Of a stretch of DNA of 64,000 nucleotides, positions 9,078-35,975 are shown piece after piece. The position numbers and the translations under genes are program-made. Source of the DNA: a bacterium (GTDB lineage: Bacteria; Patescibacteriota; Minisyncoccia; UBA6257; 02-FULL-45-10c); the NCBI GenBank assembly GCA_030646915.1, contig JAUSKT010000021.1:19707-83706 (forward strand). The letters run 5' to 3'. Under the pieces are notes generated by a model that was not told the DNA's origin, did no database searches, and saw only the letters and a program-made list of their open reading frames with translations. The first letter of the stretch is position 1, and the number at the start of each line of letters is the position of its first letter.

Positions 9078-12000
9078 ATGAGTAAAAAATTAATACAAAA
9101 AGTTTCTACAACTGTAGTATCTATTGCTACAGTCGTTTCGCTTTCAGGCGCAGGAGCTTTGCTTCCAATGACAGTTAGTGGCGCAACCACAGCTGACTTG
9201 CAAGCACAGATTACTGCTTTGTTAGCGTCAGTAGCAGCTTTGCAAGCTCAATTAGGTTCAGCAACTTCTGGAACTTCCAGCGCTGCTTCAGCTACCTTAT
9301 TGTCTTCCGGGAACCTCACTCTCGGCAGCAAAGGAGCAGCAGTTATGGATTTACAGAAATTTTTGAATGCTAGTGGCGCGCAAGTTTCTGCTAGTGGCGC
9401 TGGCTCTCCTGGAAATGAAACTTCTTTCTTTGGTCCTGCGACCAGAGCAGCTCTTGCCAAGTGGCAGGCGGCTAATGGCGTTTCCCCAGCGGTTGGATAT
9501 TTTGGCGCGATCTCTCGTGCAAAAATGGCTTCTGTTGGTGGAACAACTGGCGGAACAACTGGCGGAACAACTGGCGGAACAACTGGAACAACTCCAGCCC
9601 CAGTAGTCCCAGCAGGCACTGGTTTGACGGTTACTTTAGCCGCAGATCAGCCAGCTCCAACATTAGCTCCTCGTTCAGCCGCCCGAATTCCATTCACTAA
9701 AATTCAATTAACCGCATCTGCCGACGGCGATGTAACGGTTAGTTCCTTAGTTGTGGAAAGAAAGGGTTTAGCTGAAGACGGCGCTCTTACTGGAATTCTT
9801 TTAGTAGATGAGAATGGAATTCAATTGGGCCTCAAAAAGACCTTGAATTCTTCCCATCAGGCTACTGTCGGTGAATCAATTGTGGTAAAAGCCGGTCAAA
9901 CTAGAACTTTGACTGTTGCCGCAAATAGAGACACTGCAGGCAGCCGTGGCGGTCAAACCGTTATGTTATCTGTTGTTGGAGTGAATACTTCAGCCGCAGT
10001 TAATGCAACCTTGCCGTTAAATGGAACCACTCAGACCATCAACGAAACCTTAACAATTGGTGACGTTACTATGGCTCGGGGCGGTAATGACCCAGGCACT
10101 AGCCGGACTAAGGAAATCGGTACTACCGGTTATACTTTTTCTTCGGTTAGAGTAACTGCTGGTTCAGCGGAAAAAGTTATTTTGAAGTCTATCCGATGGA
10201 ACCAGACTGGTTCTGCCGGCTCCGGTGATTTAAAGAACATCAAGTCTCTTGTTGATGGTGTTTCTTATGACACTGTGGTCAGCACTGACGGTAAATACTA
10301 CACTTCAACTTTTGGAGTCGGTATTTTAATGGACAAAGGTTCAATTAAAGATGTTTCTATTAAGGGTGATATTGAGGGGGGTTCTTTAAGAACTGTTGAC
10401 TTTGATATCGCGAAGATGACTGATCTCTTTGTAACCGGAGAAAACTTCGGCTACGGCATTGTTCCTCCACAAACTGGAACATCAGCTGCGACAGCTGACT
10501 CAGCCAATTTTAATAACACGGAAGATCCGTGGTATGATGCGGCTCAAGTTACTGTCAGTTCCGGGACTATGTCGGTAAGCAACTGGGCGGGCGTTCCGTC
10601 TCAGAATCTCGCCATTAATCTCGGCGGCCAGCCATTGGCTGGTTGGACGGTTGATGCAAAAGGCGAGCCAATCAGTGTTAGTAGTTTAAAGGTTACTTTA
10701 TACGGAGTTGGCACTACTAATGGAGTAGATGACTTAACTACCATATATTTGCAAAATGAAGCAGGAAAAATCTTAGCTGGTCCGATTGACGTTGCCAGCA
10801 CTGCCACAAATAATGCAATTATTACCTTTACTGACACTATTACTTTCCCAGTTGGAATAACTAACCTTACTTTAAAAGGTAAGCTGGGAACTGGTTTTAG
10901 CAATAATGACACCATTGCTGCTTCTACCACTCCAGGCGGTTGGACGACTACTGGTCAGACAACTGGATACTCAATTACTGCGACTCCGAGTACTGCTTTA
11001 GAGGGTCAGACAATGACTGCTAAGGGCTTAGCGCTGACTATCAGCGTTCAATCCACTCCAGCAGCTCAATCGATTGTCGGCGGAGCTCAAGGATTTGAGT
11101 TTACCCGATACACCTTTGATGCTTCTCAATCAGGCGAAGATGCCAAAATGAGCAGCGTTAATCTTGCAATTGACTACTCTGGCACAACTTCGGATAAACT
11201 ATCCGGTTGCCAGTTATGGGATGGCGTAACCGCTCTTAATACCGGCGGAAGCAATGTAGTAGACCCTACCGCAACTGCTTCTTCAACGGCATTTACTTTT
11301 GACACGCCATTAGTAGTTCCAAAAGGGACATCTAAGACGCTTTCTCTTAAATGCAATACGGAAACAGTTTCCGCTACTACGAATTATCGTTGGGGCATTG
11401 ATACCGATGCTTCATACACAGTAACAGGCTTAACTTCTGGACAATCAATTACTGACACGACTGTTGTGCCAGCCGCTAATAATAGCATTGGCCAATTAAT
11501 GTCTTTGACTACCGGCGGTTCTTACACCGTTACTGATGAAGATACCCCGGCTTACAGAATTGTAACGCCTGGCGCAGAAGAAACTTTGGGAAGATTGGCA
11601 TTCCAAGCCTCAACCGAGGCGATTGATGTCAGGGCAGTAGCGCTTAAATTAACCGGCGGTGCTTCTAATACCCCTAAAGATCTTCTTAACTTAAAGGTTA
11701 AGTTCTATGATGCGGCTAATCCTTCGGTTTCGATTGGTGAAGCTAATTTCGTAAATGAAGGGGATACTGCTACCGGCACGCTTGCCGTAGGAAGCTTTAA
11801 GGTGGAAAAAGGATACGGCGCGAGAAAGATACTTCTTATAAAAGGCACTATTGCTGACATCAGCGATGTTGCTTATGGGAATTATCAACTTACTGCGTCC
11901 GGCGACCTTCTTAAGGTTGATTACGATGGCGCTGCGGTTGGTTTGGCAAACGGCAACTACGGTGTTGGTTCGGCTGGCAATGTTTCCGGTCCGACCACTA

Positions 12001-12680
12001 ATACTACGTTAGCCGGCGTAAGGATAATGAAAGCAAAACCTGTTTTTGCTAAATTATCTTTGCCGAAAAATACCATCGCTGGCAACGCGGACCAGAGTGT
12101 GTACCGATTCTCTGTAGCAGCCACTAATGGAAATGTGGATCTTTATAAGGTCACATTCACTGTTGGCTCTTCAACGGTTTCGGCAACCACATCAGATTAT
12201 AAACTGTATGCCTTTACTGGTGCTGGCTTTAGCGGAGCGCTTCCGGGCTGGGCTGATTCTACTGGCTTATTGAATGCTGGCGGTTGCACGGATGGTTTAT
12301 CCGACACTTCTCCACAACGTTTAACTCTGAATGTTTATATGGATCAAACTGGCTGTGCTCAGGGTACTACTACCTTGAAGATTCCGATGGGGTCAACGTA
12401 TTACTTTGACTTGCATGCAACATTTGGCTCTGTTAGGACCACTACTGGATCTGAAAATATCAGCTTCCAATTAGAAGGCGATAGCGCTTTCCCAGTGAAT
12501 TCTTCTAACTTGATGCAACAAGCAAGTGGAGTTGATGGTGATGTTAGTGATGACCTTATCTGGTCACCGCGTTCAACAACCAGTCCTTCAGTTAGTAATC
12601 TTGACTTTACGAACGGAAATGGCGTTGATGGCTTGCCAGCTTCTAACATGAATCAGGAGACCCTAACGTTCACTCTGTAA
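9078..12680 (+). CDS. large cell-surface (S-layer-like) protein: signal peptide, peptidoglycan-binding domain, GGTT repeat linker, roughly 1000-aa Thr/Ser/Gly/Ala-rich beta-rich region
   Basis: Signal peptide MSKKLIQKVSTTVVSIATVVSLSGAGALLPMTVSGA. PG_binding_1-like segment LGSKGAAVMDLQKFLNASG...FGPATRAALAKWQAANGV. (GGTT)4. Almost no Cys. 460-nt upstream leader. Start moved from the track value (9021) to the ATG at 9078 in the same frame. Confidence 0.8.
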   Translation: MSKKLIQKVSTTVVSIATVVSLSGAGALLPMTVSGATTADLQAQITALLASVAALQAQLGSATSGTSSAASATLLSSGNLTLGSKGAAVMDLQKFLNASGAQVSASGAGSPGNETSFFGPATRAALAKWQAANGVSPAVGYFGAISRAKMASVGGTTGGTTGGTTGGTTGTTPAPVVPAGTGLTVTLAADQPAPTLAPRSAARIPFTKIQLTASADGDVTVSSLVVERKGLAEDGALTGILLVDENGIQLGLKKTLNSSHQATVGESIVVKAGQTRTLTVAANRDTAGSRGGQTVMLSVVGVNTSAAVNATLPLNGTTQTINETLTIGDVTMARGGNDPGTSRTKEIGTTGYTFSSVRVTAGSAEKVILKSIRWNQTGSAGSGDLKNIKSLVDGVSYDTVVSTDGKYYTSTFGVGILMDKGSIKDVSIKGDIEGGSLRTVDFDIAKMTDLFVTGENFGYGIVPPQTGTSAATADSANFNNTEDPWYDAAQVTVSSGTMSVSNWAGVPSQNLAINLGGQPLAGWTVDAKGEPISVSSLKVTLYGVGTTNGVDDLTTIYLQNEAGKILAGPIDVASTATNNAIITFTDTITFPVGITNLTLKGKLGTGFSNNDTIAASTTPGGWTTTGQTTGYSITATPSTALEGQTMTAKGLALTISVQSTPAAQSIVGGAQGFEFTRYTFDASQSGEDAKMSSVNLAIDYSGTTSDKLSGCQLWDGVTALNTGGSNVVDPTATASSTAFTFDTPLVVPKGTSKTLSLKCNTETVSATTNYRWGIDTDASYTVTGLTSGQSITDTTVVPAANNSIGQLMSLTTGGSYTVTDEDTPAYRIVTPGAEETLGRLAFQASTEAIDVRAVALKLTGGASNTPKDLLNLKVKFYDAANPSVSIGEANFVNEGDTATGTLAVGSFKVEKGYGARKILLIKGTIADISDVAYGNYQLTASGDLLKVDYDGAAVGLANGNYGVGSAGNVSGPTTNTTLAGVRIMKAKPVFAKLSLPKNTIAGNADQSVYRFSVAATNGNVDLYKVTFTVGSSTVSATTSDYKLYAFTGAGFSGALPGWADSTGLLNAGGCTDGLSDTSPQRLTLNVYMDQTGCAQGTTTLKIPMGSTYYFDLHATFGSVRTTTGSENISFQLEGDSAFPVNSSNLMQQASGVDGDVSDDLIWSPRSTTSPSVSNLDFTNGNGVDGLPASNMNQETLTFTL
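9541..9590 (+). repeat. 12-nt tandem repeat (GGCGGAACAACT) x4 encoding a GGTT linker
   Basis: Direct read of the sequence. The LAEQLAEQ ORF at 9367-9606 is the out-of-frame shadow of this repeat. Confidence 0.9.
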
Positions 12681-12705
12681 TCTAATATCTTGAGACTATT
12701 AGTAC

Positions 12706-12738
12706 AAAAACTCCCCTTTTGGGGAGTTTTTGTTTTTG
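12706..12738 (+). terminator. rho-independent terminator
   Basis: aaaaactcccc-tttt-ggggagttttt followed by a T-run. Confidence 0.8.
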
Positions 12739-12762
12739 CTAATATGATGTATGATATAAATT

Positions 12763-13485
12763 ATGAAAAAATTATTTATTCTACTATTATTAATTATTAT
12801 CACTGGAGCCGCCTGGTTTATTTTTAAAGATTTTCAATTAACAAATCAACCCAAGACAAATGCGCCTAGTGAACTTATTAACCCAGTATCATCAGAGGTT
12901 CAAAACCAAACATCTGCGATTCCCGATCTTAATCGTTCTATTGCTGTTTCAGCAGACCTTTCCGCAGATTCTAAAAAGAAATCTATTGAGGTTATCAAGA
13001 ATGTTTCCGAACAATTAAAAAAGAACCCCGATGTTCTTGATGGCTGGCTGATTCTTGGTTTGTACAGGCGGGAAATAGGAGACGCGGAAGGCGCGGCCGA
13101 GGCGTGGAAATATCTGACAACGATCCGCCCTAAGGATGCCAGAGCTTTTAGCAATCTTGCCGGTCTTTATTCTCACGAACTTAAAGATTATCCAAAAGCA
13201 GAGGAGTGGTATAACCAAGGCATCAAAGCCGACTCCAATGCAGTTTATCTTTATTTTTCTTTAGCCGAATTTTATCAATATTTTACAAAAGAAATAGAAA
13301 AAGTTGACGACGTATTTTTATTGGGCTTAAAAAATAATCCGGGCGATCTTAGCCTGATTTCCCAATTAGCTTACTTTTATAAAAGTATCGGAGAAAAAGA
13401 AAAAGCTCTAGATTATTTTAAAAAATTGGTTGCCTTAGATCCTTCTAATGATAAGGCAAAACAAGAGCTTGAGAATTTGAGATAG
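12763..13485 (+). CDS. membrane-anchored TPR-repeat protein
   Basis: N-terminal transmembrane segment. TPR-like AEAWKYLTTIRPKDARAFSNLAGLY and KAEEWYNQGIKADSNAVYLYFSLAEFY. Confidence 0.7.
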   Translation: MKKLFILLLLIIITGAAWFIFKDFQLTNQPKTNAPSELINPVSSEVQNQTSAIPDLNRSIAVSADLSADSKKKSIEVIKNVSEQLKKNPDVLDGWLILGLYRREIGDAEGAAEAWKYLTTIRPKDARAFSNLAGLYSHELKDYPKAEEWYNQGIKADSNAVYLYFSLAEFYQYFTKEIEKVDDVFLLGLKNNPGDLSLISQLAYFYKSIGEKEKALDYFKKLVALDPSNDKAKQELENLR

Positions 13486-13564
13486 GTTCTAGATATTCTT
13501 TATAATCGTCCAAATCCCGATAAACCCGTCTTTAAAAGAATCTTTTTTGATCAAAAGATAAAAT

Positions 13565-15271
13565 ATGAATAAAATAGGAAAATATTTTTTAGGGATTCAG
13601 CCATTTAAAATTTTAATTTTTATTATTTTGATTCTTGCCTTTTTGTTAAGATTTTGGAATGTTTGGAATCAAGATTTGTTCGGAGATGAAGCGCCGGACG
13701 CTTTTCGGGCAATTGGATATATAGATTATTTAGGCACTAGTTTTCAGACTCAGCCGATTGATTGGTACAAAAATACCGCTTTGCCCTGGTGGACCAGCCT
13801 TTCCTTCCACGATTTTCCGCCGCTGGCGATGATAATTCAGCACGCTTTTTTTGCGGTTTTTGGAGATTCGCTTTTAGTTGCCCGGTTGCCGGCGATAATT
13901 TTAGGAGTAATTTCGGTTTTTTTACTCTATTTAATCGCTAAAAAGTTTTTCGAAAATGAGATTTTGGCTTTATTTTCGGCCTTATTTTTCGCCATTAATA
14001 GCGAGATGGTATGGATTTTTCGTACTAGCATGCTAGAACCTATATTGCTATTTTTTATTTTGCTTAATATTTATTTTTTTTATCAGTTTATTTATGAAAA
14101 TAAATCCGGGCATTACTGGTGGCTTTTTGGAATAAGCTTGGGGCTGGTAACCTTGACTAAATACACAGGGGTTTTTTTGCTCCCGGTTTATATTCTTTAT
14201 ATTTTGATAACTAAAAGAGAAATTTTTAAAAATTGGAGATTGTATGCCGCTTTCCTTTTGGCCATCCTTTTATTTTTGCCGGTAATTATTTATAATATTT
14301 ATCTTTATAAAGCTACCGGGCATTTTGATTTGCAGATTTCCTATTTTCTTGGACAGGAGACGCCGGAATGGACGGGTTTAGTGGGGAAGATTCAATCGCC
14401 TTTTTCTGACATTCTTAAAAATTTGATGTTTCAGCAAAAAGATTCTGCCCCAAATTCCGTATGGCCGGTAGGTTATTATGGTTTGCCAGCTATTTTAGCT
14501 GTTTTGGGCGGAATAGTTTATTCCCTCCAAGATTTTCTTAAAAAGAAATTTAAAGGATTTGTATTTTTCAGCTTATATTTTATTTTTGTGACTTTGCTTT
14601 TGTTTAAAATCGGATCAGCGCATCGGTTTTTGGCCCTATATGGCCCCGCTTTTGCTATTTTTGCCGGTTATCTAGTGAATTCCCTATGGAATTTAAAAAT
14701 AAAAAAAGGAGTTGGTTTAGCATTTAAGGCGCTAATATTCATATTTTTTATTTGGGAATTATCTCATTCAATAAATACCAATTTTATTCAATATCCGAAT
14801 TATGGCATGGCTAATCTGGATAATTTTTTTAGAAATGAATTTCGAGGTAGAGAATCCGCGGTAGTTCCAGAATCGGATAATCCGCATTTAAATGACGTGA
14901 TTGGGGAATTTGTTGACAAAAAATCAGCTAATGCGCCGCGCGCCCTATGGCTGGTCATTTATAATGATAATGTCGCCCTGCCTACTTTGGAGTGGATTTA
15001 TTATAAAATGTTTTTTTATCACAGTATCCCGGCCATGTATGTTGAGAATTTTAATAAAGCAGTGAGTATTCAGGGTTCAGATTATTTTAAGGGCTTTGAT
15101 ATTTATTTTGTCCAAAGCACGGAAAATACTCCTTTGAATCAATTTAAAAAAGAGAAAACTGCCGGCTTGGAGTTTGAGAATCGCCTGCAAAAAATGGGAT
15201 TGCAGCCGATGAAAATTATTCACGGTCAAAATAATCTGCCGATGTTCAGAATCTATAAATTTTCTTTATAG
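13565..15271 (+). CDS. polytopic membrane glycosyltransferase, GT-C fold (ArnT/PMT-like, GT39/GT83-type)
   Basis: FGDEAPD acidic motif in the first extracytoplasmic loop. More than 10 predicted transmembrane helices. 568 aa. Confidence 0.7.
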   Translation: MNKIGKYFLGIQPFKILIFIILILAFLLRFWNVWNQDLFGDEAPDAFRAIGYIDYLGTSFQTQPIDWYKNTALPWWTSLSFHDFPPLAMIIQHAFFAVFGDSLLVARLPAIILGVISVFLLYLIAKKFFENEILALFSALFFAINSEMVWIFRTSMLEPILLFFILLNIYFFYQFIYENKSGHYWWLFGISLGLVTLTKYTGVFLLPVYILYILITKREIFKNWRLYAAFLLAILLFLPVIIYNIYLYKATGHFDLQISYFLGQETPEWTGLVGKIQSPFSDILKNLMFQQKDSAPNSVWPVGYYGLPAILAVLGGIVYSLQDFLKKKFKGFVFFSLYFIFVTLLLFKIGSAHRFLALYGPAFAIFAGYLVNSLWNLKIKKGVGLAFKALIFIFFIWELSHSINTNFIQYPNYGMANLDNFFRNEFRGRESAVVPESDNPHLNDVIGEFVDKKSANAPRALWLVIYNDNVALPTLEWIYYKMFFYHSIPAMYVENFNKAVSIQGSDYFKGFDIYFVQSTENTPLNQFKKEKTAGLEFENRLQKMGLQPMKIIHGQNNLPMFRIYKFSL

Positions 15272-16395
15272 ACCGATTCAGTTTTAGATACCATTTTCTC
15301 TAAGCTGAATTTTTCCAATACTGCTTTTTGAGCCATTTTTCCCAATTCGTTGCCAATAGTTTTGTTAGTTATTAATCCATTGATGGCCCCTGCGAGTATC
15401 GCCGAATCTTTTTGCGCTACCATTAATCCATTCTCATGATTTTTAATCATTTCCGGTATACCGCCAGCTTCCGTAACCACAATTGGCAATTCCGCCGCCA
15501 TCGCTTCCAGTAATATATAGGGCAGTCCCTCTTTGATTGAAGACATAACGAAAATATCAAAAGCTTTTAGGTATTCGGCGTCATTTCCAGTCGGATTAAT
15601 AAAGAAAAATCTACTATTGACATTTGACATTTGACATTTGACGTTCAACTTTTTTAATTCTGGTCCTTCGCCGATTATAAAAAAATAAGCATTAGGAATT
15701 AGGGCGGCGGATTGAATGAGGGTTTCGTAATTTTTTTCTTTAACTAATCGGCCAATGGAGCCAATCCACGGATAATTGGAATTAGGAATTAGGAATTTGG
15801 AATTTGGAATTTTATTTGCTATTTCTTTCCGTGCTTCTTCTTTGGATAAAAATTTCATATTTGGATCAATGCCATTATGGATTGTAGTTAATTTATTTTT
15901 CGGCGCAATTTTGTATTTTAAGGCCAAATTATAGTCATATTCTGAAACGCAGATGATTTTATCTTGGAATAATGCGGAAAATTTATGAAGCAGAATATAA
16001 AACCAGCGGATTGGGAAAGATAATTCATTAGTTGGATTAAAAACCCAGCCATGGGCGGTGAAGACCACCTTCGGCGGCGAACATTTGACATTTAACATGT
16101 GACATTTGACTTTATAGATTTTGGCGGCCAAAGAGCCAAGAACTCCGGCCTTAGAACTATTCAGATGAATGATGTCCGGACGTTCTTTTTTGTATAATTT
16201 AATTAATTCTATTATTGCCAGCCAGTCATTTATAAAAAACGGCCAGATTTTATTGGAAAGCCAGCGGAGGTCTTTTTGGCCAAAAATAATTTTAGAATCA
16301 AATTGATTCTTATCTAAATTAGCAGACAAATCATGGACATATTTTTGAGCTCCGCCAATATCAGCCTTTGTAATTATATAGAGAACTTTTATCAT
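15253..16395 (-). CDS. glycosyltransferase family 4 (GT-B)
   Basis: EX7E motif EGLPYILLEAMAAELPIVVTEAGGIPEMI. Contains three in-frame heptamer blocks. Confidence 0.9.
   Translation of the reverse strand: MIKVLYIITKADIGGAQKYVHDLSANLDKNQFDSKIIFGQKDLRWLSNKIWPFFINDWLAIIELIKLYKKERPDIIHLNSSKAGVLGSLAAKIYKVKCHMLNVKCSPPKVVFTAHGWVFNPTNELSFPIRWFYILLHKFSALFQDKIICVSEYDYNLALKYKIAPKNKLTTIHNGIDPNMKFLSKEEARKEIANKIPNSKFLIPNSNYPWIGSIGRLVKEKNYETLIQSAALIPNAYFFIIGEGPELKKLNVKCQMSNVNSRFFFINPTGNDAEYLKAFDIFVMSSIKEGLPYILLEAMAAELPIVVTEAGGIPEMIKNHENGLMVAQKDSAILAGAINGLITNKTIGNELGKMAQKAVLEKFSLEKMVSKTESVYKENL
15617..15644 (-). repeat. 4 x heptamer block (TTGACAT x3 + TTGACGT on the top strand; GTCAAAT on the sense strand), encoding NVKCQMSNV
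   Basis: Direct read of the sequence. Confidence 0.85.
15781..15815 (-). repeat. 5 x heptamer block ATTAGGA ATTAGGA ATTTGGA ATTTGGA ATTTTAT (encodes IPNSKFLIPNS); a further ATTAGGA ATTAGGG pair lies at 15691-15704
   Basis: Direct read of the sequence. Confidence 0.85.
16081..16108 (-). repeat. 4 x heptamer block ACATTTG ACATTTA ACATGTG ACATTTG (encodes HMLNVKCSP)
   Basis: Direct read of the sequence. Confidence 0.85.
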
Positions 16396-16427
16396 TTTAT
16401 TAGTTATATAATATAATTATAACTCGT

Positions 16428-17612: not shown

Positions 17613-17618
17613 TAATTT

Positions 17619-19870: not shown

Positions 19871-19876
19871 ATTCAT

Positions 19877-22266: not shown

Positions 22267-22267
22267 T

Positions 22268-26299: not shown

Positions 26300-26305
26300 G
26301 TTAAT

Positions 26306-26334: not shown

Positions 26335-26379
26335 TGGATATTTTATAAAATATGGACCAGTATAAGAGATTAATTCCTC

Positions 26380-27965: not shown

Positions 27966-29283
27966 TAATCAAAAAATAATTTTATCGGGCCTTTTGGCAA
28001 TTACCTTTTTCATTTCTCTGGGTTATTCTTTTTATTTTCGAATTCCGACCGCCGCAGATGCGCGCGCTTATGACAGCATAGCTTGGAATATTGTCCGTGG
28101 AAATGGTTATTTAGAAGTTTCGGGCGTTTCGCCCGAGAAAGATAATTCTATTATTCGAGTTGGGCCGGGATATGAAATTTTCTTGGCGGCTATTTATTAT
28201 ATTTTTGGCCATAGCTATGAAGCAGTTTGGATTATTCAGGCATTGCTTATGGCGATGACAGCTTTATTGATTTTTTTAACTACTAAGGAGATTTTTCAGA
28301 ATCATTGGAATTTTCTTATTGGAATAATTGCCGCAGCTTTAGTCGGTTTTTCTCCTGATTTAATTACAATGCAGGGAATGTTAATGACTGAAACTTTGGG
28401 AATTTTTCTTATCGTTTTAACCAGCTATTTATTTTGCCGATATTATAATGCTGAAGAAAAATCTTGGATTTCGGCTATATTGCTGGGATTAGCTATCGGA
28501 TTAGCCACTTTAGTGCGAGCGCCGGCCTTGTTCTTGTTTTTTCCAGTTGCCGCTTATTTTTTAATATCTAAAAATTGGAAACATTTTTTATTGGCAGGCA
28601 TTACGATTATTGCGTTATTTTTGCCATGGATTATAAGAAATTATCAAGTTTATGGCGTTTTTTTACCGACTAATGCCGCTGCCGGATTTAATTTATTGAC
28701 TGGCAATCATTTGGGAGCAAGCGGAGAACAGGGCGATTTTTCGGTTTTGAATCATTATCCAGCGGGATTAAATGGAGTTCAGATCAATAAGCTAGCTACG
28801 GATGATGCTATAAAATTTATCCTAAATAATCCGCTAGAATTTTTAAAATTGACCATTTATCGAATTTCTATTTATTTCAGCTTTGCCCGGCCGACCGGAT
28901 TTTGGTTCCATCTTCGGGGATGGGATAAAATTATCACTTTAGTTTTATCGGCAATTTATTCAATTGCGCTTTTTATCTTTGGATTTTGGGGAATTAGCCA
29001 GATTAAAAATTTGGAGGTTAGGGAAAAGAACTTAGCCAAATTTTTTCTGACAATGCTTGTAATGATGCCACTCGCAATTATTGGCATTATTGTGGAAACA
29101 AGATATCGAATGTTAGTCTATCCATTTTTTGCAGTTTTCGCCGGTTATGGATTCAGCGAATTTTTAAATAAGCGTATATATTGGAAACCGGCTTTATATT
29201 TAGCATTGTTATTGTTTGTAAACAGCACTTTTGACATATTAAGAAATTTTGGCCGGATTATTGATAAAGTTAATAATTTCTAA
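27952..29283 (+). CDS. polytopic membrane protein, GT-C-like glycosyltransferase
   Basis: About 12 transmembrane helices. ADARAYDSIAWN loop after TM1. Confidence 0.6.
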   Translation: MKNFNNQKIILSGLLAITFFISLGYSFYFRIPTAADARAYDSIAWNIVRGNGYLEVSGVSPEKDNSIIRVGPGYEIFLAAIYYIFGHSYEAVWIIQALLMAMTALLIFLTTKEIFQNHWNFLIGIIAAALVGFSPDLITMQGMLMTETLGIFLIVLTSYLFCRYYNAEEKSWISAILLGLAIGLATLVRAPALFLFFPVAAYFLISKNWKHFLLAGITIIALFLPWIIRNYQVYGVFLPTNAAAGFNLLTGNHLGASGEQGDFSVLNHYPAGLNGVQINKLATDDAIKFILNNPLEFLKLTIYRISIYFSFARPTGFWFHLRGWDKIITLVLSAIYSIALFIFGFWGISQIKNLEVREKNLAKFFLTMLVMMPLAIIGIIVETRYRMLVYPFFAVFAGYGFSEFLNKRIYWKPALYLALLLFVNSTFDILRNFGRIIDKVNNF

Positions 29284-29284
29284 T

Positions 29285-30316
29285 ATGCCCACTTTAAATA
29301 AATTTTTAGAAAATAAAACAATTTTAGTCTGCGGCGGATGTGGTTTTATGGGTTCTAATTTCATCCGTTTTATTTTGGATAATTTTAAAAAAACTAAAAT
29401 TATTAATTTAGATCTTTTAACTTATGCCGGAAATAAAGATAATTTAAAGGAGATTAATCTTAAAAATTACAGCTTTATAAGGGGGGATATCAATAACACT
29501 AAGCTTGTTGCAGGATTAATGAAAAAGGCTGATTTAGCGGTCAATTTCGCCGCAGAAACTCATGTAGACAAGTCTATCCACGGCGGCGCTCCAGATTTTG
29601 TCCGCACTAATATTTTAGGGGTTCAGTCTTTGCTGGAGGCGTTGCGCCAGTCGCCAAAAATTTTAAAATTTATACAGATTTCTACTGATGAAGTTTGGGG
29701 AGATTTAAGCCTTAATTCTAAAATTAAATTTACTGAAAAATCAGCATTTAAACCAAATTCTCCATATGCGGCTTCTAAGGCGGCCGGCGATCTTTTAGTT
29801 CGGTCTTACTTTAGGACTTATGGGTTGCCGATGATTGTTTCCCATTCGGTAAATAATTTCGGTCCAAGGCAATTTCCAGAAAAGCTGATTCCTTTTTTTG
29901 CTTTAAGGGCAATGCAAAATAAGCCCCTGCCTCTTTATGGCGATGGGAAAAATGTCCGTGACTGGCTTTATGTAGATGACCATAGTTCAGCTATTTTAAC
30001 TCTTTTTCAGAAAGCTAAGACAGGGGAGGTTTATGCGATTTCTCGAAGCGAAGAATATTCTAATTTAGAAATTGCTGATAGAATACTAAAGATATTAGAT
30101 AAATCCAATAATTTAATAACTTTTGTTAAAGACCGGCCAGGACACGATCGGAGATATTCCGTCGATTCTTCAAAATTAAGGCTTTTGGGTTGGCAGCCCA
30201 AATTTTCATTTGAAAAGCAGTTGAAAAAAACAATAAGTTGGTATAAAGAAAACCTGCAATGGTTTAATAATGTTCTAAAGAAGAGTAGCGAAATTAATAA
30301 GCATATTAAGATATAA
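29285..30316 (+). CDS. rfbB: dTDP-glucose 4,6-dehydratase
   Basis: ILVCGGCGFMGSNF; YAASKAAGD (YxxxK); GDGKNVRDWLYVDDH. Start set at MPTLNK. Confidence 0.9.
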   Translation: MPTLNKFLENKTILVCGGCGFMGSNFIRFILDNFKKTKIINLDLLTYAGNKDNLKEINLKNYSFIRGDINNTKLVAGLMKKADLAVNFAAETHVDKSIHGGAPDFVRTNILGVQSLLEALRQSPKILKFIQISTDEVWGDLSLNSKIKFTEKSAFKPNSPYAASKAAGDLLVRSYFRTYGLPMIVSHSVNNFGPRQFPEKLIPFFALRAMQNKPLPLYGDGKNVRDWLYVDDHSSAILTLFQKAKTGEVYAISRSEEYSNLEIADRILKILDKSNNLITFVKDRPGHDRRYSVDSSKLRLLGWQPKFSFEKQLKKTISWYKENLQWFNNVLKKSSEINKHIKI

Positions 30317-30322
30317 AATAAA

Positions 30323-31042
30323 ATGAAAGGTGTAATTCTTGCCGGCGGAAACGGCACAAGGCTAAGCCCCCTTACTTTAGTTACTAATAAGCATCTTTTG
30401 CCGGTGTATAAAAAACCGATGATTTATTGGCCGCTGGAAACATTGATCCAATGCGGAATTAAAAATATTCTTATTATTTCTGGACGGGGGCATGCCGGGC
30501 ATTTTGTAAATTTACTTGGTTCTGGAAAAAAATTTGGAGTAAATCTGTCTTATGAGGTACAGGAAAATGCCGGTGGCATTGCCCATGCGCTGGCTATAGC
30601 CGATGATTTTGCTGATAACGGAAAAATTGCTGTTATTTTAGGGGATAATGTTTTTATGGATTCTAAAGAAATTCAAAAGGGAGTTAAAGATTTTAAACAA
30701 CAAAAAAATGGATCAAAAATATTTTTAAAATCAGTTCTAGATGCTAACCGATTTGGCGTGGCAGAAATTAATAAAAAGAAAGTAGCCAGAATAGAAGAGA
30801 AGCCAGCTAAGCCGAAATCCAATTTGGCGGTTACCGGTATATATCTTTATGACGAGCAGGTATTTAATATTATCCGAAAAATTAAACCATCCCGAAGGGG
30901 GGAGTTGGAAATAACTGACGTTAATAATTCTTATATTAAGAAGAATCAGATGACTTTTCAGATTTTAAAATCAGAATGGACCGATGCTGGAACTTTTGAT
31001 TCTCTTTTGCGTGCGAATTTACTTGCAGCTGAAATGGCTTAG
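30323..31042 (+). CDS. rfbA: glucose-1-phosphate thymidylyltransferase (short form)
   Basis: MKGVILAGGNGTRLSPLT...KHLLPVY nucleotidyltransferase signature. Confidence 0.85.
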   Translation: MKGVILAGGNGTRLSPLTLVTNKHLLPVYKKPMIYWPLETLIQCGIKNILIISGRGHAGHFVNLLGSGKKFGVNLSYEVQENAGGIAHALAIADDFADNGKIAVILGDNVFMDSKEIQKGVKDFKQQKNGSKIFLKSVLDANRFGVAEINKKKVARIEEKPAKPKSNLAVTGIYLYDEQVFNIIRKIKPSRRGELEITDVNNSYIKKNQMTFQILKSEWTDAGTFDSLLRANLLAAEMA

Positions 31043-31054
31043 AATTTTTATATT

Positions 31055-31753
31055 ATGCATAAATTATCAATAGTTATTCCGGCATATGATGAAAAAAATA
31101 CCATTGAAGAAATTATCCGACGAGTTAAGGCTGTGAATCTCAATGGCGTAGTAAAAGAAATTATTGTGGTGGATGATGGTTCTAAAGATGGCACTAGGGA
31201 AATACTCAAGAAAATTACGGATATTCGCTATATTTTCCACGAAAAAAATCTTGGCAAGGGCGGAGCGATGAAAACTGGATTTAAAGCTGCGACTGGAGAC
31301 TTACTAATACCCCAAGATGCAGATTTAGAATATGATCCCAATGATTATGGGGCTATGATCGCGCCGATTTTACGGGGCGAAACAGAGGTTACTAATGGAG
31401 TCCGTATTCAGCCAAAAAATGATTCTCGCCGAACCACAGTCGCTTATTGGCTGCATTGGCTTGGCAATAATGCAATTACTTGGACGACGAATTGGCTTTA
31501 TTGGAATAATGCCGAAGAGTATGAGGGGTGTTATAAGGCCATTACCAAAAGACTACTTGATTCAATTAATATAAAAACGAATAATTTTGATTATGACAAT
31601 GAGCTTTTTTGTAAGTTTTTAAAACAAGGCTATAAAATTATTGATGTGCCAATTAAATACTATCCAAGAGATTACGAGCAGGGTAAAAAAATCAATTGGA
31701 AGCACGGTTTTTTGATTTTATGGACGATTATTAAAACCCGATTTATTGATTAG
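31055..31753 (+). CDS. GT2 family glycosyltransferase
   Basis: SIVIPAYDEKNTI; IIVVDDGSKDGT; QDADLEYDP. Confidence 0.8.
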   Translation: MHKLSIVIPAYDEKNTIEEIIRRVKAVNLNGVVKEIIVVDDGSKDGTREILKKITDIRYIFHEKNLGKGGAMKTGFKAATGDLLIPQDADLEYDPNDYGAMIAPILRGETEVTNGVRIQPKNDSRRTTVAYWLHWLGNNAITWTTNWLYWNNAEEYEGCYKAITKRLLDSINIKTNNFDYDNELFCKFLKQGYKIIDVPIKYYPRDYEQGKKINWKHGFLILWTIIKTRFID

Positions 31754-31777
31754 GAATTAACTCAAAACACCCATATT

Positions 31778-32845
31778 TTATTTTTGTGCTTGAAGGACGG
31801 AGCGGTAGGCAACCAAGGTTCTTGCTAATCCAGTTTCTAAATCTACGGTGGGGTTAAAACCCAAATCTCTTTTTATTTTTGTAATATTTGGGCATCGGCG
31901 TTTTGGCTCTCCGGCTGGGTAGGATTCTGGATAATTAATAAGCTGTACTTTAGAATTAGTCGCCGCTAATTTAGTTATGATATTTCCTAAATCATTCATA
32001 TTGATTTCTTCATTATCCCTACCTACGTTATAAACCTCGCCATTTTTACCAGAAACTAATATTTTAAAGAATCCTTGGATGGCATCAGTTATATAGCAAA
32101 AAGTCCGAGTTTGATTTCCCTTGTCATGAACTGGTAAATTTTCTCCGTTAATAGCCTTAACCATAAAAGTTGGTATTACCCTGTAATCATTCACTTTCAT
32201 TCCTGGACCATAGACATTGAATGGACGGACTATTTTAACTGGAAGATTATATAGTTGGTGGTAAGTTACGCAAAGAGTTTCGCCTAAGCGCTTGGATTCA
32301 TCGTAGCAAGCTCGGGGTCCGATAGGAGAAATATTTCCGGAATACTCCTCGGGTGTAGGAATAAATTTAGGATCTGGATCCCCATAAATTTCACTGGAAC
32401 TGAAATAAAGCATACTTTTAACTTTCTTTTCTTTTGTATATTCCAAAAAATTTTTAGTGCCGTTTACAGCCACCTCAATAGTTTCGATTGGAAATTTTTT
32501 ATAGTAAAAAGGGGAGGCTAAACCAGCGGCATGAATTACGTAATCGGCATCAATATTCGTTGGAATAGGTTTCCTGACATCGTGTTCAATAAGTTTAAAA
32601 TTAGGATTATTTTCAGAGGCGAAAATTAAATTTTTTTGGGAGCCAGTGATAAAATTATCCATAATTATCACTTTGCAGGGATTTTTTAAAACTTCCTTAT
32701 TTAATTGAAGAAATGTGGCGACTAAATAATTCCCCAAGAAGCCCGCGCCGCCAGAAATCAGAATAGTTTTTCCATCAAAAGCAGGTGCTTCCCTTTTGAT
32801 AGAATCAATGATATTTTTAATGTCTTCTTGTATAAGAGCATCCAT
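31778..32845 (-). CDS. NAD-dependent sugar-nucleotide decarboxylase/dehydratase (UDP-glucuronate decarboxylase / UXS-ArnA C-terminal-like SDR)
   Basis: ILISGGAGFLGNYL; YDESKRLGE (YxxxK). 355 aa. Confidence 0.75.
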   Translation of the reverse strand: MDALIQEDIKNIIDSIKREAPAFDGKTILISGGAGFLGNYLVATFLQLNKEVLKNPCKVIIMDNFITGSQKNLIFASENNPNFKLIEHDVRKPIPTNIDADYVIHAAGLASPFYYKKFPIETIEVAVNGTKNFLEYTKEKKVKSMLYFSSSEIYGDPDPKFIPTPEEYSGNISPIGPRACYDESKRLGETLCVTYHQLYNLPVKIVRPFNVYGPGMKVNDYRVIPTFMVKAINGENLPVHDKGNQTRTFCYITDAIQGFFKILVSGKNGEVYNVGRDNEEINMNDLGNIITKLAATNSKVQLINYPESYPAGEPKRRCPNITKIKRDLGFNPTVDLETGLARTLVAYRSVLQAQK

Positions 32846-32916
32846 AAATTTAAAGCTTTTTATTTTAGAGATAGGTTGATTATAAATTATATATTATATT
32901 TGTAAATCGGGGAAAT

Positions 32917-34533
32917 TTGAATCATTATTATAACATGATAAATAATAAAAAAGTTATTGTGGTTTTGCCGGCTTATAATGCCGCTAAAACTTTAGAAAAG
33001 ACTTTATTTGCTATACCAAAAGATTGGGTAGACGATGTTATTTTAGTGGATGATTTGAGTCGCGATGACACAGTGGCAGTTGCAAAAAAAATGGGACTAA
33101 AAACTTTTGTTCATGAGAAAAATCTTGGTTATGGCGGAAATCAAAAGACTTGTTATAGAGAAGCTTTAAAATTAGGCGCTGATATCGTGGTAATGCTGCA
33201 TCCGGATTTCCAATATGACCCATCTTTTATTCCAGAAATGATTAAGCCAATTGCTATGGGTGAATGCGATGCAGTATTCGGTTCTCGGATGTATGTAAAG
33301 AGGAATGCTCTTTTGGGCGGCATGCCTTATTGGAAATTTTTTGCCAATATTTTTTTGACTTTACTGGAAAATTTAGTTTTGAAGATGAATTTAACTGAGT
33401 ATCACTCTGGCTTTCGAGCTTATAGTAAAAGAGTTTTAGAATTGCCGCTATATTTGAATTCTGACGGTTTTGTTTTTGATACGGAAATTATTGTTCAGAT
33501 GAAAGTAGCAGGAATGAAAATTAAAGAAATTCCTATCACAACCAGGTATTTTTCTGAAGCTTCTATGATTGGATTTTGGCGCAGCGTTCAATACGGACTT
33601 AATATTTTATCAGTAATGTTTCGTTATTTGCTGGGCCAATTTGAAATTCAATATTGTGAAAAATCTTGCCCGAATTGCCAAAAACAGCAGTCACTTATTT
33701 TTTTAAGGGGGTCTGATGATTTGATGGGGATATTAAAAAATACTAATTATCAGATTACTGAGTCTAATATTGGCCTTTATGGAAATATATATCACTGCGT
33801 TAATTGTGACTTATATTTTGTTGATCGTTTTAATATTGAAGCTGCGTTAAATAAATATTATGCTAGGCAGTCGTTGGATATTGTTTATTTAAGAGATGTA
33901 ATCGGAAGACGCAAGGCCTTTCGGCGAGTATTAGAAAAAATAATATATTTAAATCCGGATATGAAAAATTTATTGGATATCGGTTGCGGTCCAGGATTTT
34001 TCTTAGCTGAAGCAGAATCAGCAGGTTTGGATGTTTGGGGGTTGGAGATTTCCAATGAATCGGTTAAATTTGCCAAAGATAAATTAAATTTGCCTCAAGT
34101 TTTTCAAGACGAAGAGTCGCTTGAAGAAGCGGCTCCTAAACCATTTGGTGCAATCACCGCTTTTGATTTTATTGAGCATGCTTTAGACCCAAAGGAAATT
34201 TTTATAAAGGTGCATAAAAAACTTGAAACAGGAGGCCTGTTTGTATTTACTATTCCAATTATTGATTCGTTTGTGGCTAAATTACTTGGCAAAAGATGGC
34301 ATGCCTTGGTGCCCTCTCATTTGAATTATTTTACTTTTAAATCATTAGCGAATATTTATCTACCATTAGGATATTCATTAGTTAGAAAAAGATGGCATTG
34401 GAAATATTTATCTTTTTCTTATTTATTAAAGCGATTATTTAAAAAACCAGATTGGCGGCTTCCTAAGGTATTGGATTTTGTAATTCCAGTTAATTTTTTT
34501 GATGAAGCAGAGGTTTACTTAAGAAAAAATTGA
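32917..34533 (+). CDS. bifunctional GT2 glycosyltransferase / SAM-dependent methyltransferase fusion
   Basis: N-terminal VIVVLPAYNAAKT...VDDLSRDDT. Zinc-ribbon cysteines CPNCQ...CVNCD. C-terminal LLDIGCGPGFFLAEA methyltransferase motif I. Confidence 0.8.
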   Translation: MNHYYNMINNKKVIVVLPAYNAAKTLEKTLFAIPKDWVDDVILVDDLSRDDTVAVAKKMGLKTFVHEKNLGYGGNQKTCYREALKLGADIVVMLHPDFQYDPSFIPEMIKPIAMGECDAVFGSRMYVKRNALLGGMPYWKFFANIFLTLLENLVLKMNLTEYHSGFRAYSKRVLELPLYLNSDGFVFDTEIIVQMKVAGMKIKEIPITTRYFSEASMIGFWRSVQYGLNILSVMFRYLLGQFEIQYCEKSCPNCQKQQSLIFLRGSDDLMGILKNTNYQITESNIGLYGNIYHCVNCDLYFVDRFNIEAALNKYYARQSLDIVYLRDVIGRRKAFRRVLEKIIYLNPDMKNLLDIGCGPGFFLAEAESAGLDVWGLEISNESVKFAKDKLNLPQVFQDEESLEEAAPKPFGAITAFDFIEHALDPKEIFIKVHKKLETGGLFVFTIPIIDSFVAKLLGKRWHALVPSHLNYFTFKSLANIYLPLGYSLVRKRWHWKYLSFSYLLKRLFKKPDWRLPKVLDFVIPVNFFDEAEVYLRKN

Positions 34534-35975
34534 AGGATCAAATGATTGAAAACTTTTTAAAAAAATATTATTCAGAAATTATTTTTTGTTTATTGTTAAC
34601 TGGCATAGTAATTGTTTCCTTGCCGGCTTTAACCACTAAGCCTAGGCTTTGGTATGACGAGGGGATTAATATTGAATTTGCTAAGAATTTTCTTGATTTT
34701 GGAAAATTAGACACTTCAGTTGCTCCAGGAGAGTTTTCCGGATTAACTCGTTTTTATCAGGCATCTGGCTACCCACTTTCTCTTCCTCTGAGCATTTTTT
34801 TTAGTATTTTTGGATTTGGCTCAGTTCAAGCTAGGGCTTACATGCTTTGCTGGATAGCGATTGCGCTCACATCAATTTTTATTTTTGTTAAAAAAATGGC
34901 TGGAAAAGAAGCGGCTTTAGCTGCTTCAATTCTAATCGCTACTTTTGCATCGTTTCATGATAATGGCCGTACGGTTATGGGGGAAATTCCAGGATTTGTT
35001 TTCTTGCTTTGGGCGTTATATTGGATTTTCTGGAAAAATTCTTATTTTATCAGTGGTTTATTATTTGGCTTAGCGATTTCTGCCAAGCCGTCGGTTTATA
35101 TTTCAGCTTTACCGGCAATTTTAATTTTGCTTATTTTAGAGCGGGATAATTTTTGGAAGAACGGATTAAAAATTTTCGCCGGAATGCTCCCGCTGTTTTT
35201 ATTAAGAATTTGGTTTGTCATGCCAAATATTTTTTCTTTAGCGGACTGGCAAGGAGTGATTAATCTTTTTCAAAATCCTTTTGGCGCCAATATTTCTCCG
35301 GCAGTCAATTTTTTAGCTAATTTTTCCGCTATTCCAAGGACTTATACTATTATTTATTTTGGATTATTTACTGCAATTATTTTATTTGATTATTTCAGGC
35401 GGAACCCCAAAGATTTTATTTATAAGAAATTTTTTTGGTTTGCAATCATTTATAATTTTTTCGCCTTTTTATATTATCTTAAAAGTCCGGGCTGGCTCCG
35501 TTATTTAATAGCAGCTGATCTCCTTACCTTTATTCTTTTAGTTTTGGCCTTAAGAAATCTTCTATTAGAATCCATAAAAAAGAAAATACTTTTTTATTTG
35601 ATAATTTTCGGCTTAATTAGTTTTCAAACCTATTATTTATTTACTAGCGCCAAGATATTTTACTCGGATAGTGAGGAGGTAGTTATTAGTTTAGTAAATA
35701 CAGAATTTAAAAATAATACCATTGGCATTTTTAATGTTCCAGAAATTGGCGCTTTTGTGCCAGCCGAAAGGAAATATCAAACTTATCGCATGTTGGGTGT
35801 TCCTTTTATCGGGAAAAATCCTATTTTTTATAATCCATTTCCAAAATTTTTTATTCTAAGATCCGGAGAGGAAACATCCCATTTTTTATCGGGAGAAAAA
35901 GAAATTTTACTAAAGAATTACCAACTTTTACAAATAGTAGGACATTACAGTATTTATAAACGAATTGTGGATTAA
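34530..35975 (+). CDS. polytopic membrane glycosyltransferase, GT-C fold (ArnT-like)
   Basis: RLWYDEGINIEFA (YDEG loop motif). About 12 transmembrane helices. Confidence 0.65.
   Translation: MKDQMIENFLKKYYSEIIFCLLLTGIVIVSLPALTTKPRLWYDEGINIEFAKNFLDFGKLDTSVAPGEFSGLTRFYQASGYPLSLPLSIFFSIFGFGSVQARAYMLCWIAIALTSIFIFVKKMAGKEAALAASILIATFASFHDNGRTVMGEIPGFVFLLWALYWIFWKNSYFISGLLFGLAISAKPSVYISALPAILILLILERDNFWKNGLKIFAGMLPLFLLRIWFVMPNIFSLADWQGVINLFQNPFGANISPAVNFLANFSAIPRTYTIIYFGLFTAIILFDYFRRNPKDFIYKKFFWFAIIYNFFAFLYYLKSPGWLRYLIAADLLTFILLVLALRNLLLESIKKKILFYLIIFGLISFQTYYLFTSAKIFYSDSEEVVISLVNTEFKNNTIGIFNVPEIGAFVPAERKYQTYRMLGVPFIGKNPIFYNPFPKFFILRSGEETSHFLSGEKEILLKNYQLLQIVGHYSIYKRIVD

Follow-up and report, generated by a model that had tools for sequence, protein, structure and literature searches.

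A 64,000-nucleotide stretch of contig JAUSKT010000021.1 (assembly GCA_030646915.1; hereafter the window) encodes a 1,200-residue secreted protein, which we call BIG, next to a long island of glycan genes. We read BIG as a candidate surface layer (S-layer) protein of the cell envelope that is O-glycosylated outside the cell from polyprenyl-phosphate sugars, a reading in which our confidence is slightly short of even. It builds on the anatomy of BIG, the distribution and synteny of its family, and the family assignments of the neighboring enzymes, all of which are established; that the transferases may decorate BIG we infer from gene order. Together with an adjacent tetratricopeptide repeat (TPR) protein, BIG forms a module of an undescribed family and is a concrete S-layer candidate, and the glycosylation island is a variation on a known strategy. 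The S-layers of bacteria of the candidate phyla radiation (CPR), Parcubacteria included, lacked any tied gene in the searchable literature, and BIG is one specific candidate. Extracytoplasmic glycosylation from polyprenyl-phosphate donors, which takes up more than 50 kb here, appears to be a large investment in tiny genomes and bears on the surface that episymbionts offer to hosts and phages.

BIG is encoded on the forward strand at 9078-12680, from an ATG at 9078 whose position its homologues share. The N terminus is also common to homologues and looks like a typical Sec signal, with a signal peptide at residues 1 to 36 (9078-9185) made up of MSKK, a hydrophobic core (hydropathy segment at residues 13 to 31), and a putative cleavage site after ..VSGA. 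In an AlphaFold2 (AF2) model built from 46 homologues, residues 1 to 37 have a predicted local distance difference test score (pLDDT) below 50, and a predicted coiled-coil helix (residues 38 to 62) precedes a PG_binding_1 domain at residues ~72 to 154 (9291-9539), which was identified from Pfam PF01471, a profile match, and the helices in the model. The PF01471 match (residues 86 to 136; 25 bits against a cutoff of 23) is the sole Pfam domain recognized in BIG, and the family profile matched only solved peptidoglycan-binding domains in the PDB (1lbu, 4.4e-7). A disordered Thr/Gly/Pro linker, GGTTGGTTGGTTGGTTGTTPAPVVP, follows at residues 155 to 180 (9540-9617; pLDDT below 50) and is the candidate region for O-glycosylation. 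This linker varies in length but is Thr/Ser-, Pro-, Gly-, or Ala-rich in nearly all of the 46 aligned sequences, with a Ser+Thr fraction from 0.10 to 0.69. The remainder, residues 181 to 1200 (9618-12677), was resolved by AF2, Foldseek, and hhalign into about nine beta-sandwich (Ig-like) modules; in the model (mean pLDDT 81.9) they form an all-beta array of ~1,000 residues that runs without a break from residue 181 to the C terminus. Distant mutual homology was detected among some of the modules (hhalign probabilities of 96% and 88%), and two invariant columns of the family alignment, Cys711 and Cys759, fit an extracellular disulfide.

The composition of BIG (13.8% Thr, 11.8% Gly, 10.8% Ala, 9.9% Ser; net acidic, with four Cys) is S-layer-like and gives a Ser+Thr content of 23.7%, compared with 8 to 11% in eight other proteins of the window. 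A first-pass annotation of the DNA had described a signal peptide, a peptidoglycan-binding domain, and a Thr/Ser/Gly-rich beta region in this protein, and hydropathy, PF01471, amino acid content, and the AF2 model bear out each of these. The same annotation had considered that the protein might turn out to be cytoplasmic, which was not the outcome: from its predicted features and modeled fold, BIG is clearly extracytoplasmic and wall anchored. It carries both a secretion signal and a wall-anchoring module, the anchor being PG_binding_1 rather than a classical SLH or CWB2 domain.

Foldseek searches with the BIG model returned generic multi-Ig proteins only (PrgB, integrins, alpha-2-macroglobulins, and a mastigoneme), and the S-layer protein of Nitrosopumilus maritimus (8c8m) ranked 21st among the matches. 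An alpha-2-macroglobulin-like identity was considered and rejected: the MG-domain matches had low TM-scores, BIG has four Cys, and its translation holds no CxEQ thioester motif. Some of these matches, PrgB and the integrins among them, are adhesins or Ig-array proteins, which would suit a different role, in which BIG is an episymbiont adhesin and not a lattice protein, with the PG_binding_1 domain or the Ig-like array binding the host surface and glycans, if any, modulating attachment. CPR bacteria are commonly episymbionts, and highly expressed proteins with peptidoglycan-binding domains in three Paceibacteria have been proposed to act in host attachment (PMC10936435). Those proteins could not be matched to BIG; the single one open to checking has 692 residues against 1,200 in BIG and probably belongs to a different family. 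The peptidoglycan-binding domain sits at the N terminus, with the signal peptide just ahead of it and a spacer linker behind it, an arrangement that points to a self-anchor, and full-length identity of 44 to 71% at near-constant size across candidate phyla with different hosts would be unusual for host-contact proteins. An adhesin thus seems to us very improbable.

Homologues of BIG fall into more than 1,225 clusters and form a family that is unannotated and conserved over its full length. The best 120 homologues have 1,144 to 1,266 residues and 44 to 71% identity over 87 to 100% of the query, and those with names come from Harrison-, Giovannoni-, Lloyd-, Sung-, and Niyogibacteria and other Paceibacteria, where the annotation is at most "peptidoglycan-binding protein." A scan with one genome per GTDB species found BIG relatives in at least 390 genomes, and 80 loci were taken for a neighborhood study based on profile searches of all open reading frames (ORFs). 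TPR proteins were counted over the 73 loci with at least 1.5 kb of downstream sequence, and glycosyltransferases over the 53 loci with at least 8 kb. The near-universal partner of BIG is a TPR protein, not the transferases: a TPR homologue lies downstream of BIG in 69/73 loci and within 1.5 kb of it in 54/73. The partner in the window (12763-13485, forward strand; 240 residues, identified by Pfam TPR families) has an N-terminal transmembrane segment at residues 3 to 21 and is predicted to be membrane anchored and extracytoplasmic.

Membrane-embedded glycosyltransferases with the GT-C fold enter this arrangement in part of the family. A neighbor-joining tree of BIG placed the GT-C-adjacent loci in the window's own clade, where all loci with sufficient sequence carry a GT-C gene 0 to 1 kb downstream of BIG. 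These genes are paralogues of GTC1, the first GT-C of the window (13565-15271, forward strand; 568 residues), and lie between BIG and the TPR gene or directly after the latter. Separately from this clade, a pair of Niyogibacteria loci (L036 and L040) has a GT-C gene 1 kb upstream of BIG, and blocks of glycosyltransferase family 4 (GT4) genes follow the TPR gene in other clades (L007, L029, L057, L081, and L082). At least seven related genomes have the order BIG-GTC1a-miniBIG-GTC1b-TPR. miniBIG is a BIG paralogue of 330 to 370 residues with a signal peptide, a coiled coil, a PG_binding_1 domain, a Thr/Pro/Ala-rich linker, and one beta module; copies between two GTC1 paralogues were located in L002 (15566-16360), L008 (5988-7001), L011 (8447-9490), L013 (5650-6687), L020 (15340-16461), L021 (10492-11571), and L034 (7305-8315). 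We looked for miniBIG in the 64-kb window, and it is absent there.

Lineages without adjacent transferases have a different continuation, in which the BIG-TPR pair is followed by a conserved protein of ~160 residues and a second protein of ~1,070 to 1,330 residues (L003 14907-19096; homologues in 13 to 18 other loci), which suggests a larger conserved envelope-protein locus. A 730-residue fusion of a Wzy_C (O-antigen-ligase/PglL-like) domain with TPRs is encoded 6 kb downstream of BIG in L003 (19635-21827) and also occurs in L015, L019, and L022. It was discarded as a general neighbor of BIG, being confined to Lloydbacteria (5 loci).

The four GT-C enzymes that had been proposed from the sequence, GTC1 and the forward-strand genes GTC2 (19877-21529), GTC3 (27952-29283), and GTC4 (34530-35975), all scored above the PMT_2 gathering score of 26.1 in Pfam searches (87.1, 37.3, 52.3, and 36.5 bits, respectively). 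The PMT model (PF02366; cutoff 22.7) also matched GTC1 (62.9 bits, model positions 2 to 242 of 245) and GTC3 (44.3 bits); this model covers GT83/ArnT as well, and a match therefore cannot separate GT39 from GT83. Each of the four has 7 to 10 transmembrane segments predicted from hydropathy. The acidic motifs reported for them were recovered after the first transmembrane segment in three, as GDEA in GTC1, IDDEPP in GTC2, and WYDEGI in GTC4, and are missing from GTC3, which has no DE pair at this place. A phmmer search of PDB sequences with GTC2 and GTC3 gave no matches.

GTC1 has about 108 detectable relatives, named "glycosyltransferase family 39 protein" at NCBI. Across 45 homologues, D41 is invariant and E42 is conserved in at least 90%, directly after the first transmembrane segment and thus in the first extracytoplasmic loop; further conserved motifs are SFHDxPP, KY, and HFD. 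The AF2 model of GTC1 (pLDDT 91.1; predicted template modeling score 0.92) has a GT-C fold followed by an alpha/beta domain of ~160 residues at the C terminus, and all 38 of its Foldseek matches in the PDB at an E value of ≤1e-3 are GT-Cs (AglB, ArnT, Pmt4, STT3, ALG12, DPY19, PglB, and AftD). In searches of PDB sequences with the family profile, yeast Pmt1 and Pmt4 came first (2e-7 each), followed by ArnT (2e-6) and TMEM260 (0.05). GTC1 reached 24.9 bits on the ArnT equivalog NF009784, where the cutoff is 567, and was far below the curated cutoff for Agl23. Since it scores so far below the ArnT and Agl23 cutoffs and lacks the PMT_4TMC domain, GTC1 is best placed in an uncharacterized subfamily of the PMT/ArnT clan.

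Putative donor enzymes are interleaved with the GT-C genes. GTC2 is followed by a small Dpm1-like member of glycosyltransferase family 2 (GT2; 21529-22266, forward strand); GTC3 is followed by RmlB (29249-30316; 421.6 bits against a cutoff of 365), an RmlA-like gene (30323-31042), and a second GT2 (31055-31753); and a GT2-methyltransferase fusion (32917-34533, forward strand) overlaps GTC4. The small GT2s are nearest to polyprenyl-phosphate sugar synthases, in agreement with what had been proposed for them. The GT2 at 21529 matched Pyrococcus DPMS (5mlz) over its full length at 3e-26 and ArnC at 1e-14, the GT2 at 31055 matched ArnC at 5e-14, and the other top matches were ArnC, GtrB, AglJ, PgfS, and PpgS, although the NCBIfam ones (AglJ, PgfS, and PpgS) all stayed below their equivalog cutoffs. 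The small GT2s have no C-terminal transmembrane helices, as is also true of human DPM1. The first-pass annotation had placed five Dpm1-like synthases and nine GT4 enzymes within 9078-35975, counts that need correction: this interval holds three of the former (21529, 31055, and the fusion at 32917) and six of the latter (15253, 16428, 17619, 18731, 23218, and 26853), and genes farther downstream (GT2s at 37225 and 45551; GT4s at 40247 and 42387) bring the totals for the window to five and eight.

The nucleotide-sugar pathways that had been noted are present, with RmlB, RmlA-like, epimerase, and DegT genes. RmlB, the RmlA-like protein, RmlD, FdtA, three DegT aminotransferases, C- and other methyltransferases, and a B12-binding radical-SAM enzyme point, by homology, to modified 6-deoxy-amino sugars as likely products. 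A second kind of donor may come from a UbiA-family protein at 55945-56808, which scored 246.2 bits on NF008977 (decaprenyl-phosphate phosphoribosyltransferase; cutoff 234) and is hereafter called the DPPR synthase. Its gene forms a block with those for a HAD phosphatase and an SDR protein (54308-56808) that adjoins three multi-pass membrane proteins at 49186-54304, one of them a weak PMT_2 match. The region 49186-56808 appears to be a polyprenyl-phosphate pentose (ribose- or arabinose-type) donor module in a CPR genome.

In the mechanism that we propose, BIG would be a major wall-anchored envelope protein of a Paceibacteria (Harrisonbacteria-like) cell, presumably abundant and assembled into a lattice. 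Sec would export it, and its N-terminal PG_binding_1 domain would dock it noncovalently on the cell's own peptidoglycan, with the Thr/Gly/Pro linker spacing it off the wall and the approximately nine beta-sandwich modules facing outward. The outward-facing, membrane-anchored TPR protein might serve as a dedicated partner in the assembly or presentation of BIG. The island would produce unusual dTDP-, GDP-, or UDP-type sugars along with CMP-activated ones; the Dpm1/GtrB-like GT2s and the one DPPR synthase would charge polyprenyl phosphate with single sugars at the inner face of the membrane; and a factor encoded elsewhere would flip the loaded lipids, whose sugars the PMT/ArnT-clan GT-Cs would then transfer on the outer face. 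At least GTC1 would O-glycosylate Ser/Thr residues of BIG as the acceptor, most likely in the linker, and in relatives it would likewise glycosylate miniBIG.

Five observations favor the link between GTC1 and BIG: GTC1 is inserted inside a near-universal BIG-TPR pair; the number of GTC1 paralogues in relatives equals that of PG-binding paralogues, one for each; the Niyogibacteria show GT-C adjacency again, in another arrangement; the linkers resemble known bacterial targets of O-glycosylation; and in Streptococcus mutans the Pgf enzymes and their adhesin substrates belong to one cluster. It is also conceivable that the genes lie together without functional meaning, a variable glycan island having been inserted 3′ of a conserved envelope pair in one lineage and then inherited vertically. 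Adjacency is found mainly in one BIG clade and is absent from 33/53 loci, island content varies among relatives, and distant relatives of GTC1 are solitary, all of which fits this scenario. It accounts poorly for the recurrence of a GT-C gene upstream of BIG in the Niyogibacteria loci, for the GT4 blocks that follow the TPR gene in other clades, and for the location of the GTC1 paralogues between BIG and the TPR gene instead of at the edge of the pair, and we judge it improbable.

The sequences around BIG bear on its expression. The first-pass annotation had inferred strong, regulated expression from a 460-nt leader with an internal terminator-like hairpin. A GC hairpin followed by a T-run was indeed found by a terminator scan (8862-8876, forward strand), where it most simply terminates or insulates upstream transcription, and the intergenic gap 5′ of BIG measures 542 nt. 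A riboswitch or leader RNA is unsupported, because no Rfam family was found anywhere in the window (upstream of BIG there was just a chance microRNA match) and segment 8950-9090 folds no better than shuffled sequences (z = −1.16). The ~200 nt before the BIG start codon (8877-9077, forward strand) are conserved, with 77% column identity to the two nearest relatives, and are the presumed promoter and 5′ untranslated region; promoter-like sites at 8972-9008 are weak. The upstream region is read most simply as a terminator and, after it, a promoter and 5′ untranslated region belonging to BIG itself; a regulated leader of 460 nt is not supported. The contigs of the two nearest relatives, which come from the same assembly (L001 and L088, positions 1-20 of each), start precisely where the 3′ arm of this hairpin does (window 8869-8890), which points to either an assembly break that recurs or sequence that varies among strains. 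On the other side of BIG, a strong intrinsic terminator with a 13-bp stem and a T-run (12704-12733, forward strand; −25.9 kcal/mol, z = −7.2) makes the gene a transcription unit of its own. Codons for Tyr, Phe, Asp, Asn, and His end in C at a fraction of 0.36 in BIG compared with 0.165 across the remaining 49 genes (Fisher P = 4e-10), which ranks BIG second of 50, and its extra GC sits at codon positions 1 and 2. The codon bias fits high expression.

Several results weigh against glycosylation of BIG by the island. The synteny comparison that had been called for upheld adjacency within the window's clade, where a GT-C is always near BIG or the TPR gene, and not for the family at large: a GT-C gene lies within 10 kb of BIG in just 13/53 loci, a GT4 gene in 18/53, and any glycosyltransferase is near it in just 20/53. 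GTC1 has ~108 relatives, whereas BIG has more than 1,225 clusters; some distant GTC1 relatives are away from BIG, among housekeeping genes or beside a different Ig-like giant protein. The Ser+Thr fraction of BIG is the same with or without GT-C adjacency (0.244 in the GT-C-adjacent clade and 0.242 in the others), a test for the gain of glycosylation sites was negative (4/97 clade-specific Ser/Thr columns versus 4/129 for Val/Ile/Leu), and the linkers of BIG's two closest homologues are poor in Ser/Thr (0.10 to 0.14). BIG is separated from the island by the terminator at 12704-12733. Foldseek ranks oligosaccharyltransferase/AglB, ArnT, Pmt4, ALG12, and AftD about equally near GTC1 (TM-scores of ~0.5). 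PMT_4TMC (PF16192) was unmatched in GTC1 and in none of the four GT-Cs reached an E value of ≤0.01 in Pfam; among GTC1 relatives, only the remote P0225 carries it. The PMT family identity claimed for the GT-Cs thus holds at the level of the PMT/ArnT clan, with Pmt1 and Pmt4 as the top profile matches, and not in the narrower sense: the sequence and modeled fold of GTC1 appear equally compatible with a protein and a wall-polymer acceptor. Among GT-Cs of the YfhO type, a single family serves proteins or teichoic acids (PMC12041528).

The description of the locus as a self-contained system has to be abandoned. No ORF of the window matched GtrA, Wzx, or any other flippase family, and the intergenic gaps contain no small membrane ORF. 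Also missing from the window are an initiating phosphoglycosyltransferase, Wzy, an ABC exporter, an LCP ligase, a TagF-like polymerase, and a Wzy_C-type oligosaccharyltransferase; without these parts, the locus is not self-contained. Eight GT4s without a flippase or initiating transferase resemble part of a polymer pathway, which also tells against BIG as the acceptor, and suggest a lipid-linked oligo- or polysaccharide.

These points lead to the main alternative, in which the enzymes of the island synthesize and decorate a glycopolymer of the wall, either a secondary cell-wall polymer or a glycan of teichoic or arabinan type, and BIG is not an acceptor. A lipid-linked chain put together by the GT4s would receive side-chain sugars outside the cell from the GT2/GT-C pairs and the DPPR module, and the adjacency of BIG would come from the clustering of envelope genes or from an anchor that binds the decorated wall. 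S-layer genes adjoin secondary cell-wall polymer loci in Bacillus anthracis and a polymer locus in Clostridioides difficile. The eight GT4s, the many enzymes that modify nucleotide sugars, and the five to seven GT-C-like membrane proteins do resemble polymer pathways; the DPPR synthase, above its curated cutoff, stands beside further membrane proteins; and the teichoic acids of Bacillus and Listeria are substrates of GT2/GT-C pairs (PMC12041528). The strong terminator that splits BIG from the island, the many BIG loci (most of them) without adjacent transferases, and a Ser/Thr content of BIG independent of GT-C adjacency fit this alternative as well. The polymer would, however, have to be made without an initiating phosphoglycosyltransferase, Wzx/Wzy, ABC exporter, LCP ligase, or TagF-like polymerase in the window, and it leaves aside the GTC1 paralogues inside the tight BIG-TPR pair, one after each PG-binding paralogue. 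The GTC1 profile is also slightly nearer to protein O-mannosyltransferases than to ArnT and matched Emb/Aft weakly. We regard a glycopolymer as possible but somewhat unlikely; if it were the product, the locus would be an undescribed pathway for a wall glycopolymer in CPR bacteria.

The remaining genes complete the map of a window that is almost wholly coding and mostly reads on the forward strand. The GT4 at 15253-16395 (reverse strand) and three more at 16428-17612, 17619-18734, and 18731-19870 (forward strand), identified by Pfam, form a block that is conserved beside the TPR gene in several lineages and has only generic GT4 matches in NCBIfam. After the first GT2 come a SAM methyltransferase (22268-22834, forward strand; Pfam) and forward-strand genes for a GT4 (start 23218), the B12-binding radical-SAM enzyme (24470-26299), a 158-residue protein (start 26380), and a GT4 (start 26853). 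The radical-SAM gene has the highest GC content at third codon positions (0.42) and the highest fraction of C-ending codons in the window and was possibly acquired recently. An SDR epimerase lies at 31778-32845 (reverse strand).

The island does not stop at 35975 and extends to the end of the window. Its continuation (36007-64000) encodes the three DegT proteins, the two further GT2s, RmlD, two 4,6-dehydratases, the two further GT4s, a C-methyltransferase, FdtA, methyltransferases, the membrane proteins at 49186 and 50948, and the weak PMT_2 match at 52688. Alignment of the proteins at 49186 and 50948 with the GTC1 profile by hhalign gave probabilities below 1%. Beyond the DPPR synthase, a 501-residue protein (56791-58296, reverse strand) has a weak match to the BFO_1060 glycosyltransferase family. 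The last genes (58442-64000) encode a PseB-like dehydratase, a PseC-like DegT protein, a PTAC-domain protein, a GFO/IDH/MocA oxidoreductase, a class III aminotransferase, and a cytidylyltransferase truncated at the edge of the window, and these assignments suggest a possible nonulosonic-acid-like CMP-sugar pathway.

Upstream of BIG, a conserved block (888-8535) encodes a class V aminotransferase, a secreted Lys/Glu-rich coiled-coil protein (2237-3208), ClpB, an 8-transmembrane protein without a family (6759-7514), and a helix-turn-helix protein like HTH_DeoR (7819-8535). Because this block precedes BIG in many related genomes, the HTH_DeoR-like protein is a candidate regulator. A GC-rich inverted repeat that is unique in the window (8553-8610, with perfect 12-nt arms at 8560-8571 and 8596-8607) lies directly 3′ of its gene and is possibly a terminator without a T-run.

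S-layers have been seen by cryo-EM, without an outer membrane, on CPR/Parcubacteria cells, with the S-layer protein left unnamed (10.1101/2020.05.14.094862; 10.1101/2022.04.20.488981). A recent survey of bacterial S-layer evolution leaves CPR out, and a literature search on Parcubacteria or Patescibacteria combined with glycosylation found nothing relevant. Compared with known S-layer proteins, BIG is unusually conserved.

Glycosylated S-layer proteins with adjacent slg clusters occur in Geobacillus (SgsE/WsaB), Paenibacillus (SpaA), and Aneurinibacillus, and an S-layer glycan was the context in which FdtA was first described. The window is similar in pairing a secreted, acidic, Thr/Ser/Ala/Gly-rich, wall-anchored protein with Rml, FdtA, and DegT genes and in the long untranslated region upstream. 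In the slg systems, however, a polymer is built on lipid pyrophosphate, exported by an ABC transporter, and transferred en bloc by a Wzy_C/PglL-type enzyme, none of which is encoded in the window, and SLH anchors bind a secondary cell-wall polymer where BIG has PG_binding_1.

Actinobacterial Pmt (GT39; Rv1002c of Mycobacterium tuberculosis) works with the polyprenyl-phosphate mannose synthase Ppm1. Here too there is a GT-C with a Pfam PMT domain and an acidic pair in loop 1 and a donor expected from a Dpm1-like GT2, and the acceptors of Pmt are Sec-exported proteins with Thr/Pro/Ala-rich disordered segments resembling the linkers of BIG and miniBIG. In contrast to Pmt, GTC1 lacks PMT_4TMC, has the ~160-residue alpha/beta domain at its C terminus, shows profile similarity to Pmt1 and Pmt4 of just ~2e-7, and has a separate TPR protein as its partner. 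The sugars are probably not mannose, the sugar of Pmt, given that 6-deoxy and amino sugars are what the island produces. ArnT (GT83) and ArnC share a Pfam clan and fold with GTC1 (TM-score of 0.53 to 0.55 between GTC1 and ArnT) and are among the best GT2 matches, respectively; the differences are that GTC1 is far below the ArnT equivalog cutoff and that lipid A would be an improbable acceptor, because imaged CPR cells have no outer membrane.

The streptococcal GtrB/PgtC2 system and the Pgf system of S. mutans (PgfS, PgfE, PgfM1, and PgfM2) O-glycosylate Ser/Thr-rich disordered regions outside the cytoplasm (PMC12041528; PMC5856776), and in S. mutans one cluster encodes both the Pgf enzymes and the adhesins that are their substrates (PMC12041528). 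These are monoderm systems in which a GT2 polyprenyl-phosphate sugar synthase is combined with a GT-C that transfers outside the membrane, and PgfS is among the best NCBIfam matches of the GT2s in the window. Their GT-Cs belong to the YfhO family, whereas those here belong to PMT_2; they have one or two of these enzymes, compared with four or five GT-Cs and five GT2s here; and the target here would be a 1,200-residue protein anchored by PG_binding_1.

Eukaryotic TMTC1-4 are O-mannosyltransferases of cadherins (PMC7801869; PMC7001481). They, too, combine a PMT-clan GT-C with luminal or extracytoplasmic TPRs and act on Ig-like beta-sandwich proteins; in the window, the two functions are adjacent genes beside the multi-beta-sandwich BIG. 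The TPR and GT-C parts are separate polypeptides here, and Pfam found no DUF1736 match. A search for fusions of the two found none, all 17 TPR homologues detected being stand-alone proteins of 199 to 250 residues. The TPR protein may be unrelated to glycosylation, because it tracks BIG even where no GT-C is nearby. In its most extended form, our proposal would make BIG and the TPR protein the S-layer system of Paceibacteria, a new S-layer protein family that PG_binding_1 anchors directly to peptidoglycan. In the Harrisonbacteria-like clade, a machine of two polypeptides, TPR protein and PMT-clan GT-C, would O-glycosylate the linker of BIG and possibly also its folded Ig-like modules, drawing on several polyprenyl-phosphate sugars, including a pentose from the DPPR module. 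Such a machine would be a bacterial counterpart of the eukaryotic TMTC enzymes. We put this forward tentatively and think it unlikely to hold in every part.

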